Shown here piece by piece: positions 2,379 through 5,758 of a stretch of 34,694 nt of DNA. Origin of the DNA: a virus. Lineage: Duplodnaviria > Heunggongvirae > Uroviricota > Caudoviricetes. The position numbers and the translations under genes are program-made. The DNA lies in the IMG/VR virus record IMGVR_UViG_2534682325_000013; one strand, given 5' to 3'. How positions within the stretch are numbered: position 1 is the first letter of the stretch; each line of letters begins with the position of its first letter. Under the pieces are notes generated by a model. It saw nothing but the letters and a program-made list of their open reading frames with translations. It was not told the origin of the DNA and did not search any database.

Positions 2379-2876
2379 TCTTCTCCCCTCTTTCACCGAC
2401 CTGATTATGCCATTACATAAATTGCGATTAAATAAATGATTTTACACGTCTCAAATGCATTTTTTCTATACGTTATAGCTTTAGAGTAAGAGCTGGTAAC
2501 TTCAACTTCCTTATTTGGCACATAACAGTCCTGGATACAGTGACGCACAGTTTCTTTACAAAAACCTAGCTACATAGAGGTTAATCATCGTGTCAAATGT
2601 ACTGTAGAAATACCTAAAATAATATTTTTTTTGCTAATATGCGTATAAATGAATAACTATAGACAGATAAAAATATCAGCAAAAAGAAAATTTCCAGCAT
2701 ATTAAACCACAACAATAATACAACACTTGGCAAGCTGCCCATAAAGAATGAATAAAACGAAACAATAATTCAAACTTAAACAAACCATAAACAGTTAAAC
2801 AATATACAATTGACTCATTAAGTTAGATATAAAAAATACATATTCAATCATTAAAACGATTGAATGGAGACCTTTT

Positions 2877-3830
2877 ATGCGGGCGAAACTTCTGGGAATA
2901 GTCCTGACAACCCCTATTGCGATCAGCTCTTTTGCTTCTACCGAGACTTTATCGTTTACTCCTGACAACATAAATGCGGACATTAGTCTTGGAACTCTGA
3001 GCGGAAAAACAAAAGAGCGTGTTTATCTAGCCGAAGAAGGAGGCCGAAAAGTCAGTCAACTCGACTGGAAATTCAATAACGCTGCAATTATTAAAGGTGC
3101 AATTAATTGGGATTTGATGCCCCAGATATCTATCGGGGCTGCTGGCTGGACAACTCTCGGCAGCCGAGGTGGCAATATGGTCGATCAGGACTGGATGGAT
3201 TCCAGTAACCCCGGAACCTGGACGGATGAAAGTAGACACCCTGATACACAACTCAATTATGCCAACGAATTTGATCTGAATATCAAAGGCTGGCTCCTCA
3301 ACGAACCCAATTACCGCCTGGGACTCATGGCCGGATATCAGGAAAGCCGTTATAGCTTTACAGCCAGAGGTGGTTCCTATATCTACAGTTCTGAGGAGGG
3401 ATTCAGAGATGATATCGGCTCCTTCCCGAATGGAGAAAGAGCAATCGGCTACAAACAACGTTTTAAAATGCCCTACATTGGCTTGACTGGAAGTTATCGT
3501 TATGAAGATTTTGAGCTAGGTGGCACATTTAAATACAGCGGCTGGGTGGAAGCATCTGATAACGATGAGCACTATGACCCAGGAAAAAGAATCACTTATC
3601 GCAGTAAAGTCAAAGACCAAAATTACTATTCTGTTTCAGTCAATGCAGGTTATTACGTAACACCTAACGCAAAAGTTTATGTTGAAGGCACATGGAATCG
3701 GGTTACGAATAAAAAAGGTAATACTTCACTTTATGATCACAATGATAACACTTCAGACTACAGCAAAAATGGTGCAGGCATAGAAAACTATAACTTCATC
3801 ACTACTGCTGGTCTTAAGTACACCTTTTAA
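2877..3830 (+). CDS. ompT: Outer membrane protease OmpT (omptin family, protease VII) precursor
   Basis: 317 aa, MRAKLLGIVLTTPIAISSFASTETLSFTPDNINADISLG... ending ...NFITTAGLKYTF; matches E. coli OmpT as I recall it. Signal peptide and C-terminal beta-barrel aromatic residue present. Confidence 0.95.
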   Translation: MRAKLLGIVLTTPIAISSFASTETLSFTPDNINADISLGTLSGKTKERVYLAEEGGRKVSQLDWKFNNAAIIKGAINWDLMPQISIGAAGWTTLGSRGGNMVDQDWMDSSNPGTWTDESRHPDTQLNYANEFDLNIKGWLLNEPNYRLGLMAGYQESRYSFTARGGSYIYSSEEGFRDDIGSFPNGERAIGYKQRFKMPYIGLTGSYRYEDFELGGTFKYSGWVEASDNDEHYDPGKRITYRSKVKDQNYYSVSVNAGYYVTPNAKVYVEGTWNRVTNKKGNTSLYDHNDNTSDYSKNGAGIENYNFITTAGLKYTF

Positions 3831-4016
3831 CGAAGTTAACCAGATTTTCTCCCCGGTGGTATTGTATAACCCCGGGGAATTTGTTTACAGTTACAAGTAG
3901 ACAATATCCACTAATTTTGTAAGCATTTAACCTATGTCATAACGTGTAATCTCTTACCGCAACACAAGACCTCAATATATTCAAATTTTATCTTTATTCC
4001 GATATTCAGAGACACA

Positions 4017-5501
4017 ATGCGAAAAATAATTACTCATTTCAAAGTTGTTTTAACGTTACTTCTACCAGTAACCGTATCTGCCCAGCAGATACAGTGGCAA
4101 TCCTGTATGGCCAGTCAATTCAACCACTGGTTTGGTGAGGAAAAACCGTCTCCTGACTTACTATGTGGTTATTTGTCTGTTCCATTAAAATATACAGACA
4201 CAGGCGGAGATGCTTCTTATGAAAAAAAATCACAAGTCAAACTAGCGTTGACAAAATTGCCGGCAAAAAGCAAGCATAAAGGAAGTATCCTGATAATAAG
4301 TGGTGGTCCCGGGTTACCAGGCATAAATCCTTATATTAACTTTGACTGGCCAGTCACAAATCTTCGTGAGTCATGGGATATTATTGGATTTGATCCTCGA
4401 GGCGTCGGGCAGTCCACTCCGACAATAAACTGCCGGCAATCAGATACAGAGACTCAGGAAAACATAACCGAAAAGCAACAAGTATTAAATAAAATTAATG
4501 CCTGTATCCATAATACCGGAGCCGAAGTCATTCGCCATATCGGCTCTAACGAGGCTGTATACGATATTGATCGTATTAGGCAAGCCTTGGGGGATAAACA
4601 ACTGACAGCCGTGGCGTATTCGTATGGAACTCAAATTGCAGCCTTATATGCAGAACGTTTTCCCTACAACGTAAGATCTATCGTTCTTGATGGAGTCGTC
4701 GATATCGATGACCTGGAGGACAACTTCACATGGCAACTCAAACAGGCACAGAGTTATCAGGAAACGTTTGATCGCTTTGCATCCTGGTGTGCGCGTACAA
4801 AAAGTTGCCCGCTTTCTTCAGACAGAGATAAGGCAATAACTCAGTTCCATGAGCTATTATCAAAATTACATCACAAACCTTTATTAGACAGTAAGGGAGA
4901 AAATATATCTTCAGATGAACTCATATCATTAACAACAGACCTTCTGCTATGGCGTTCATCATGGCCAACCCTTGCAACTGCCATACGCCAGTTCTCTCAG
5001 GGGATTGTCAGTAATGAAATTGAAACTGCGCTCAGTGCTCCGATAGCCTCAGAAGAGTCAAGTGATGCTTCGGGGGTAATCCTTTGTGTAGATCAGGGGG
5101 ATGAGCAATTAACACCAGAAGAGCGAAAATTCCGAAAAGAGGCTCTTGCGAATGCCTTCCCGGCTATTAACTTTGACAATGGACGTTCCGATTCACCTGA
5201 TTTTTGTGAATTATGGCCAATACATAGCGACCTGAACAAAACTCGCCTGAAAAATACTGTTCTGCCCTCTGGTTTACTGTTTGTAGCACACAAATACGAC
5301 CCAACAACGCCCTGGATTAATGCCCGTAAGATGGCAGAGAAATTTTCCAGCCCGTTACTAACAATAAATGGTGATGGGCATACATTAGCTCTCACCGGAG
5401 TTAATTTATGTGTAGATAAAGCAGTTGTACATCACCTGATCACTCCACAAAAAATAGAAAATATATACTGCCCAGGAAATTCTGAAGCAGAAATACAATA
5501 A
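4017..5501 (+). CDS. Secreted alpha/beta-hydrolase, S33/tripeptidyl-aminopeptidase-like
   Basis: 494 aa with N-terminal signal peptide (LTLLLPVTVSAQQ). GGPG motif, GFDPRGVGQS, nucleophile-elbow-like AYSYGTQ, C-terminal acidic and His residues consistent with a Ser-Asp-His triad. Family assignment is by motif only. Confidence 0.7.
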   Translation: MRKIITHFKVVLTLLLPVTVSAQQIQWQSCMASQFNHWFGEEKPSPDLLCGYLSVPLKYTDTGGDASYEKKSQVKLALTKLPAKSKHKGSILIISGGPGLPGINPYINFDWPVTNLRESWDIIGFDPRGVGQSTPTINCRQSDTETQENITEKQQVLNKINACIHNTGAEVIRHIGSNEAVYDIDRIRQALGDKQLTAVAYSYGTQIAALYAERFPYNVRSIVLDGVVDIDDLEDNFTWQLKQAQSYQETFDRFASWCARTKSCPLSSDRDKAITQFHELLSKLHHKPLLDSKGENISSDELISLTTDLLLWRSSWPTLATAIRQFSQGIVSNEIETALSAPIASEESSDASGVILCVDQGDEQLTPEERKFRKEALANAFPAINFDNGRSDSPDFCELWPIHSDLNKTRLKNTVLPSGLLFVAHKYDPTTPWINARKMAEKFSSPLLTINGDGHTLALTGVNLCVDKAVVHHLITPQKIENIYCPGNSEAEIQ

Positions 5502-5522
5502 TTTCAAAATATTCCGCTATTT

Positions 5523-5575
5523 GCTCCCAATGCAAAACATATATTGCATTGGGAGCATATTCATATTTTTGTTAT
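5523..5575 (+). terminator. Probable rho-independent terminator after the hydrolase gene
   Basis: Perfect 13-bp inverted repeat gctcccaatgcaa / ttgcattgggagc with an 8-nt loop, followed by a T-rich stretch (catattcatatttttg). Confidence 0.5.
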
Positions 5576-5758
5576 TCTTGTATGAAATCGTCTCATGTAC
5601 ACGGTCCTTTTTTCGCCGAAAACTGATATTACTTTAATCAAAAGTTGACGTGCCAGATTCGAAGTAAATTTATAAAATATCAAATCAATATACATTTTGC
5701 ACCTTCGAGATAGTAATAGCCATTACTGTAACATGAGTTACAAACAGCTTCATACCCA

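Follow-up and report, generated by a model that had tools for sequence, protein, structure and literature searches.

The virus record IMGVR_UViG_2534682325_000013 (Caudoviricetes) was analysed as a single stretch of 34,694 nucleotides, hereafter the window. It contains the omptin gene ompT, followed on the same strand by a gene for a 494-amino-acid (aa) alpha/beta-hydrolase, and a divergent gene for a regulator of the XRE family lies upstream of ompT. Window positions 1700-5700 are 100% identical to positions 1659445-1663445 of Escherichia coli O157:H7 Sakai (NC_002695.2) and to many other O157:H7 chromosomes, and the Sakai annotation was transferred onto window coordinates with an offset of 10301. 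In Sakai the genes are ECs_1664 (regulator), ECs_1663 (ompT) and ECs_1662 (the hydrolase gene, annotated there as "hydrolase"), at the end of the lambdoid prophage Sp8. A preliminary description made from the letters of the DNA had located these three genes correctly and had suggested that they may form an accessory proteolysis module. We found that they are mostly ordinary phage and plasmid cargo that is already annotated. Two points are modestly new: omptin and hydrolase form an ancient, mobile pair that goes back as far as the F plasmid, and the link to the regulator appears to be spurious.

An omptin and a Hip1-like hydrolase in tandem

The ompT gene (ECs_1663/Z1931; 2877-3830, plus strand) encodes a protein of 317 aa that matches the Pfam family Omptin (PF01278) with an E-value of 3.7e-130 (433.5 bits, cut-off 22.6) and, over its full length, NCBIfam NF008222 with 707.8 bits (cut-off 537). 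The catalytic set of omptins, Asp83/Asp85 and Asp210/His212 in mature numbering, is known from established structural work on OmpT, and all four residues are present as D103, D105, D230 and H232 of the precursor. Judged from these features, ompT encodes a standard omptin. OmpT is recognised in enterohaemorrhagic (EHEC) and extraintestinal pathogenic E. coli as a defence against host antimicrobial peptides.

The downstream gene (ECs_1662/Z1930; 4017-5501, plus strand) has been annotated as encoding a putative protease from the EDL933 genome publication onward, and we found no paper that characterises the protein or remarks on its conserved pairing with OmpT or OmpP. Both domains anticipated for it exceed their Pfam gathering scores: Abhydrolase_1 (E 3e-33, 115.9 bits, gathering score 25.8) and the TAP-like C-terminal domain Abhydrolase_4 (PF08386; E 2e-14, 53.9 bits, gathering score 21). 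The best sequence matches among solved structures in a phmmer search of the PDB are all Hip1 (Rv2224c) of Mycobacterium tuberculosis, with 7sfm at E 5.5e-51 for residues 21-475. Across 20 aligned homologues, which range from Enterobacterales to Nocardia and Mycobacterium, the triad S202/D428/H455 is invariant, and the triad, the GGPG motif and ten cysteines are all invariant or at least 90% conserved. GGPG occupies residues 96-99, S202 lies in an AYSYGT nucleophile elbow, D428 in YDPTTP and H455 in GDGHT, and the motifs SYGT, DP(T/A)TP and (G/T)xHT align with the Hip1 triad S228/D463/H490. An AlphaFold2 model (pLDDT 86, pTM 0.87) predicts an alpha/beta core with a helical lid, as in Hip1. The six best PDB matches of the model are Hip1 entries (E down to 5e-33, TM 0.72-0.80); TnmK1 and TnmK2 come next, and prolyl aminopeptidases are found only as distant matches.

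Hip1 is an experimentally proven serine protease with the triad S228/D463/H490 and five predicted disulfides, and is related to the tripeptidyl peptidases of Streptomyces (PMC4022732). The resemblance to tripeptidyl and prolyl aminopeptidases proposed in the preliminary description stands in its first half, as a TAP-like protein of S33 type. The second half was ruled out: TIGR01249 scores 35.8 bits against a cut-off of 259.75 and TIGR01250 19.1 against 167.65, in a local match around the nucleophile only. With both scores far under their cut-offs, we name the protein "Hip1/TAP-like S33-type" and not proline iminopeptidase. Sequence and model agree in identifying it as a putative serine hydrolase of this type with an intact triad, and it is an uncharacterised new member of the Hip1/TAP-like family.

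The N-terminus of the hydrolase consists of MRK, a hydrophobic core (VVLTLLLPVTV) and a cleavage region in which VSA is followed by QQ; it looks like a typical Sec signal, encoded by 4017-4082, as had been anticipated. The cleavage region contains no lipobox Cys, which rules out a lipoprotein. The Sec-type signal and five probable disulfides suggest the periplasm as the site of the enzyme. In the proteome of the O157:H7 strain 86-24, a Shiga toxin-producing E. coli, OmpT is abundant among outer-membrane proteins, and the Z1930 protein was found in the soluble low-molecular-weight fraction (PMC3210124 supplements). The label "PP or Ex" that Z1930 carries in that study is a prediction, what was measured being a soluble protein in that fraction (PMC3210124). 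OmpT and the hydrolase are thus both produced in O157:H7.

Co-inheritance and expression of the pair

Among 5,426 complete E. coli genomes surveyed, ompT is present in 3,117 and the hydrolase gene in 1,254, being full-length in 1,230, with an identity that is nearly always at least 99%. The pair is located at the end of lambdoid prophages at several chromosomal sites: by minE in O157, by yecD in strains MS20657 and W224N, and at the DLP12 site in Z1323HEC0475. It also occurs in eight isolated temperate phages (PhiR29_1, PhiR29_2, PhiR49_1, PhiR26_1, PhiR30_1, Turner, 2G7b and ev243), in the accessory region flanked by the side-tail-fibre genes and int/attP, and each of the two proteins already has a PHROG family, with no function assigned there. 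Plasmid copies lie beside the iro locus on the IncF plasmid pTrh52, on a plasmid-like contig with Afa-type fimbrial genes (L092) and in the RepFIB region of the classical F plasmid (NC_002483, 32322-34861), where ompP is followed by an alpha/beta-hydrolase gene. The similarity of the window to these plasmid copies ends at about 5585.

Relative to the O157 pair, the aa identities of omptin and hydrolase are 92% and 95% on pTrh52, 79% and 81% on contig L092, and 70% and 76% on the F plasmid. The dN/dS ratio lies between 0.06 and 0.17 for the omptin and between 0.11 and 0.16 for the hydrolase. Omptin and hydrolase hence co-occur and have diverged together in at least four lineages (the O157 prophage, IncF, the third plasmid-like lineage and F ompP), and the pairing put forward in the preliminary description recurs when synteny is compared. 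The parallel identities and the low dN/dS ratios indicate that the two genes, both intact, have shared their inheritance from a time before the split of OmpT and OmpP and that both are under purifying selection.

Z1323HEC0475 (NZ_CP148326.1, 3489-9485, DLP12 site) carries ompT twice, the copies being 2.4 kb apart and separated by an integrase fragment; one is followed by a methyltransferase gene and the other by the hydrolase gene, an arrangement that looks like tandem prophage remnants. In the F plasmid (NC_002483, 33362-33387), the annotated start of the hydrolase gene (33374) seems to be 12 nt too far downstream, since the ATG that it has in common with the near-identical contig L086 gives MRVIMK... 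and a spacer of 92 nt after ompP.

Upstream of ompT, similarity to the K-12, enteropathogenic E. coli (EPEC)-type and IncF loci is restricted to the last 113-115 bp (2762-2876, plus strand). This is the sole upstream stretch that these loci have in common, and we regard it as the conserved ompT core promoter and 5' leader. It contains a perfect PhoP box (2777-2793, minus strand, TGTTTATGGTTTGTTTA; TAAACA-N5-TAAACA), and a promoter scan found a -35-like TTGACT at 2810-2815 and a -10-like AAAAAT at 2832-2837. The box and the -35 element (AATTGACT) are invariant in all seven omptin loci compared, F ompP included; the whole 34.7-kb window has a single match to the box, and none of 100 shuffles reached one. 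ompT is a member of the PhoPQ regulon. Additionally, a third TAAACA half-site, incompletely conserved across omptin loci, lies at 2796-2801, 8 nt downstream of the box and just upstream of the -35 element.

The ompT stop codon is followed by a GC-rich hairpin (3850-3878, plus strand; CCCCGG...CCGGGG, then AAUUUGUUU) with a folding energy of -22 kcal/mol (z -2.5), probably a leaky terminator or a 3'-end stabiliser of the ompT mRNA. It is kept at the same place in five of five omptin-hydrolase pairs, with variable loop and flanks. The spacer between the two genes is 186 bp in the O157 type and ranges from 92 to 188 nt over the pairs. In the F lineage its 92 nt consist of the hairpin and a Shine-Dalgarno sequence, and there is therefore little room for a separate promoter. 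Scanning of 3831-4016 gave no convincing sigma-70 promoter and, overall, fewer sites than in shuffled sequence. Rfam had no match in the ompT leader, this spacer or the AT-rich region upstream, its sole match being the ALIL frameshift pseudoknot (1223-1339) within the IS629 element at the left of the locus. A strong intrinsic terminator with a 14-bp stem and a T-run (5522-5557, plus strand) closes the unit behind the hydrolase gene. In a Sakai microarray study, ECs1662 and ECs1663 fall in the same cluster with log2 changes of -2.53 and -2.72, values that come from separate tables and different growth transitions (PMC2241611). The supplements of a study of PhoP in EHEC hold no data on the ompT, hydrolase or regulator genes (PMC7667037).

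We propose that window positions 2762-5585 constitute a two-gene lysogenic-conversion cassette of lambdoid phages and F-type plasmids, whose products would be an omptin outer-membrane endoprotease and an exported, disulfide-rich Hip1/TAP-like (S33-type) serine hydrolase. ompT would be transcribed from its own conserved PhoP-box promoter, and the conserved hairpin would halt most transcripts or stabilise them, read-through giving a lower dose of the hydrolase; in the 186-bp spacer of the O157 type an extra promoter is also possible. The hydrolase would then act in the periplasm as a peptidase. We hold this architecture and family assignment, a PhoP-driven attenuated cassette of a surface endoprotease and a periplasmic Hip1-like peptidase, with moderate confidence, and regard a functional coupling of the two enzymes as plausible at a considerably lower level of confidence.

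Several observations weigh against this proposal. About 60% of the ompT-positive genomes have no hydrolase gene, and plasmid pFHI_NMBU_11_02 carries the hydrolase gene without an omptin. Hydrolase homologues of at most 53% identity in Salmonella and Budvicia lack an omptin neighbour, nor was one seen among the 80 relative loci listed (Serratia, Pseudomonas and actinobacteria; three of them proteobacterial). Co-inheritance may come from the shared descent of a small cassette and not from functional dependence. The hairpin could be a full terminator, and co-transcription is what we infer across a spacer with no convincing promoter of its own. In addition, the periplasmic location is a predicted one, and peptidase activity stays putative because the fold family includes the non-proteases TnmK1 and TnmK2, and because Hip1 itself was originally named a carboxylesterase.

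A possible explanation for such observations is that ompT and the hydrolase gene are passengers with unrelated functions, the hydrolase being an independently expressed esterase, lipase or small-molecule hydrolase. This would fit the terminator-like hairpin between the genes, the occurrence of each gene without the other (in other genera too, for the hydrolase), the non-proteases of the family and one phage annotation as "putative lactone hydrolase". We consider it unlikely, however, as gene order is kept and identity has diverged in parallel in four lineages with otherwise unrelated settings, namely the prophage b-region, the IncF iro island, the F RepFIB region and an Afa-fimbrial plasmid. 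The F-lineage spacer, with its Shine-Dalgarno sequence and no room for a promoter, also speaks against it, both transcripts fall by a similar amount (PMC2241611), and the closest characterised relative of the hydrolase is a proven protease (PMC4022732).

The XRE-cupin regulator and its junction with ompT

The regulator gene (ECs_1664) extends over 1794-2378 on the minus strand from the RefSeq ATG, or over 1794-2396 from a GTG start. Its product had been described as an HTH-cupin protein. The HTH part is well supported (HTH_3, E 5.6e-17, 62 bits against 23), whereas Cupin_2, with 21 bits, falls under its gathering score of 27.2, and we refer to the C-terminal domain as cupin-like. An identity as PuuR was ruled out: NCBIfam NF007408 aligns over positions 10-180 of 185 with 44.7 bits against a cut-off of 211, and the conserved neighbour is a GNAT acetyltransferase gene and not the puu genes. 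The protein is a generic XRE-cupin regulator. Between it and ompT lie 480 bp counted from the GTG or 498 bp from the ATG, with a GC content of 0.26-0.30 in 300-nt windows across 2401-2850, so that the very AT-rich intergenic region of about 480 bp in the preliminary description is confirmed.

The regulator has homologues in Serratia, Pantoea and Klebsiella aerogenes that are 82-88% identical to it, and in Acinetobacter at about 62%. In the three loci examined (Serratia, K. aerogenes and Acinetobacter), a convergent, tail-to-tail GNAT acetyltransferase gene adjoins the regulator gene in otherwise unrelated surroundings, and none has an omptin nearby. The window retains a 3' remnant of this partner (1675-1769, plus strand; a partial acetyltransferase in the RefSeq annotation of EDL933), which IS629 truncates; MS20657, W224N and phage PhiR29_1 have the complete gene of 438 nt. 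DNA homology to the Serratia and Klebsiella regulator-acetyltransferase module covers 1675-2455, that is, the stump, the regulator gene and the 77 bp next to its ATG (2379-2455, minus strand). These 77 bp are the sole conserved segment upstream of the regulator and likely hold its promoter and operator. A tandem 15-bp repeat lies here at 2408-2437; a search of the whole window gave one further site, with three mismatches, at 2640, the matches in total being no more than expected by chance, and no convincing second copy was found near the ompT promoter.

The intervening 306 bp (2456-2761, GC 0.31) match neither the upstream regions of other ompT loci nor the Serratia and Klebsiella loci, and occur only where the regulator does. 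The MS20657 copy, at another chromosomal site, is 97.6% identical, and the Sakai annotation places the boundary of prophage Sp8 at about 2466. This segment also contains an imperfect 20-nt inverted repeat (2621-2640 and 2673-2692). The regulator-ompT junction occurs in about 330 of the complete E. coli genomes, as compared with about 1,254 that carry the hydrolase gene, and its presence at the second chromosomal site and in phage PhiR29_1 means that it moves with one phage lineage.

According to PMC6854850, which cites Thomassin 2012, EHEC exceeds EPEC 32-fold in ompT expression, and the difference is ascribed to sequence lying over 150 bp upstream of the start codon. This distal sequence of EHEC is the regulator-ompT junction, 2456-2761. 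EDL933, in which an extra IS1203 copy splits the regulator gene, is the EHEC strain in the strain table of the group that reported the high expression (PMC3853201, PMC6854850). In 86-24, where OmpT is abundant as well (PMC3210124 supplement), the regulator is intact. Because the group that reports high ompT expression in EHEC lists EDL933, with its split regulator, as its EHEC strain, and 86-24 with an intact one is also OmpT-rich, an effect of the AT-rich junction in cis is more likely than control by the regulator. Against this, EDL933 retains the HTH half of the regulator (Z1932, 111 aa), which is detectably expressed (PMC3210124 supplement), so that this strain is no clean null and a regulatory effect on ompT may exist.

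It could still be argued that regulator, ompT and hydrolase gene make up one locally regulated proteolysis module, in which the XRE-cupin protein senses a small molecule and acts from the 498-bp region. The divergent arrangement around one common AT-rich spacer, the joint movement of junction and pair to a second chromosomal site and into PhiR29_1, and the ascription of high EHEC expression to a distal sequence unique to the junction (PMC6854850) are in line with this. We find it improbable. Only about one quarter of the hydrolase-positive genomes contain the regulator, and the co-occurrence of the three genes is not conserved. In the three other genera examined the regulator is accompanied by the GNAT gene and never by an omptin, conservation upstream of it is confined to the 77 bp by its own start and that upstream of ompT to the last 115 bp, the 15-bp repeat is not convincingly repeated near the ompT promoter, ompT expression is reported to be high in EHEC by a group whose EHEC strain is EDL933, with its IS1203-split gene, and OmpT is also abundant in 86-24 with an intact one. 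In this sense the regulator, which the preliminary description had counted as a member of the module, is a neighbour from a separate regulator-GNAT module and not a dedicated regulator of the pair. The XRE-cupin gene would have been joined to ompT in one phage lineage, and this joining would have created the junction that supplies the EHEC-type distal ompT upstream sequence.

The order along the window is IS629/IS1203, acetyltransferase stump, regulator, ompT, hydrolase, ISEc8 and the tail-fibre end of prophage Sp8, and both insertion sequences lie outside the unit. IS629/IS1203 (IS3 family; 365-1674, minus strand) is the left boundary, identified from the Sakai annotation and the Pfam domains rve and HTH_Tnp_1. 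ISEc8 (IS66 family; 5767-8208, minus strand), identified from the Sakai annotation and Pfam IS66 domains, is the right boundary and is inserted in the remnant of a tail-fibre-assembly gene. Between fragments of tail-fibre-assembly genes, 8497-9165 encodes a YbcY-like class I SAM-dependent methyltransferase, which had no match in NCBIfam or PADLOC and travels with the ompT-hydrolase pair in most of the prophages and phages examined. Further on, the prophage accessory region holds a stress cassette (9918-11876) that encodes a manganese catalase and two ferritin-like proteins, with a small "general stress protein" encoded in front of them; the ferritin-like/manganese catalase cassette also adjoins the pair in Z1323HEC0475.

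Possible role of the cassette and comparison with known systems

How the two enzymes might work together can be outlined tentatively. OmpT would cut cationic host peptides or proteins at the cell surface, and the periplasmic hydrolase would finish the fragments or process an envelope substrate, so that the two would raise antimicrobial-peptide resistance or immune modulation beyond what ompT alone provides. The hydrolase may trim peptides such as OmpT-made fragments of cationic host peptides; alternatively, it may process an envelope protein, as Hip1 does with GroEL2. We put such a two-compartment coupled system forward as a tentative and somewhat doubtful possibility. The idea that the pair, or the hydrolase alone, is prophage defence or superinfection-exclusion cargo and not a host-interaction factor is very improbable: the accessory-region position between tail-fibre genes and int/attP in temperate phages and a full-length match of the hydrolase to a candidate defence-associated family (PADLOC PDLC01094, "C3a206 TAP-like protein", E 4e-56) agree with it, but that match is probably family-level homology only, to a candidate picked out by association, PADLOC gave no match for OmpT, the same pair sits beside virulence and fitness loci on F-type plasmids, and a disulfide-bonded enzyme that is exported would hardly serve as sensor or effector against phage replication inside the cell.

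Work on OmpT has dealt almost wholly with this gene by itself, mostly in K-12-type or cloned settings from which the downstream hydrolase is missing. Its neighbour in O157:H7 is an expressed and conserved relative of the M. tuberculosis virulence protease Hip1, and temperate phages as well as F and IncF plasmids give the pair its mobility. If the coupled system were true, decades of work on OmpT and OmpP would have missed a partner that is obligate or synergistic and that K-12 lacks. Additionally, the EHEC-specific "distal ompT promoter" is pinned to a recombination junction (2456-2761) between two unrelated modules, and a tempting regulator link is removed as unsupported.

Of the systems known, Hip1 and the Streptomyces enzymes TAP, SlpD and SlpE (MEROPS S33-type) are the closest to the hydrolase, with which they share Abhydrolase_1 and the TAP-like C-terminal domain. 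Hip1 aligns over the full mature length, at about 26-28% identity in a structure alignment, and has the same core and lid fold (TM 0.75-0.80). Its Ser/Asp/His triad aligns with that of the hydrolase, and both have GGPG in the oxyanion region. About five disulfides and export to the envelope are further points of resemblance, predicted in the case of the hydrolase. Hip1 differs in residing in the mycobacterial cell envelope, whereas the hydrolase has a Gram-negative host and likely a periplasmic site, and its nucleophile elbow begins with Gly where the hydrolase has Ala (AYSYG). The hydrolase gene, unlike that of Hip1, is carried by phages and plasmids and paired with an omptin, and E. coli has no counterpart of the secreted GroEL2-type substrate.

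The F-plasmid locus of ompP and hydrolase shares with the window the gene order and strand, the hairpin after the omptin stop codon, the core promoter with PhoP box and -35 element, and the triad motifs. Its differences are the 70% and 76% identities, the spacer of 92 instead of 186 nt, and its setting in the RepFIB region of a plasmid instead of a prophage. At the K-12 locus, ompT and the 115 bp upstream of it are alike (about 89% identity), and both loci belong to lambdoid prophage remnants. There, ompT of MG1655 lies between envY and appY in DLP12, the similarity stops 4 nt past its stop codon, no hydrolase gene follows, and the upstream regulator is the AraC-type envY in place of the XRE-cupin gene; the locus is indeed not the K-12 neighbourhood, as the preliminary description had stated.

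Regarding the regulator, PuuR/SutR-type proteins have the same N-terminal HTH_3 and C-terminal cupin-like domain, from which it is set apart by its sub-threshold score and by its GNAT neighbour in place of the puu genes. Finally, lom and bor of phage lambda function as lysogenic-conversion genes. The omptin-hydrolase pair resembles them in encoding envelope proteins that are expressed from the lysogen, and it lies in the accessory region before attP/int. It differs from lom and bor in being a two-enzyme cassette that lambdoid phages share with conjugative plasmids and that has a PhoP-box promoter of its own, which would be host-regulated.

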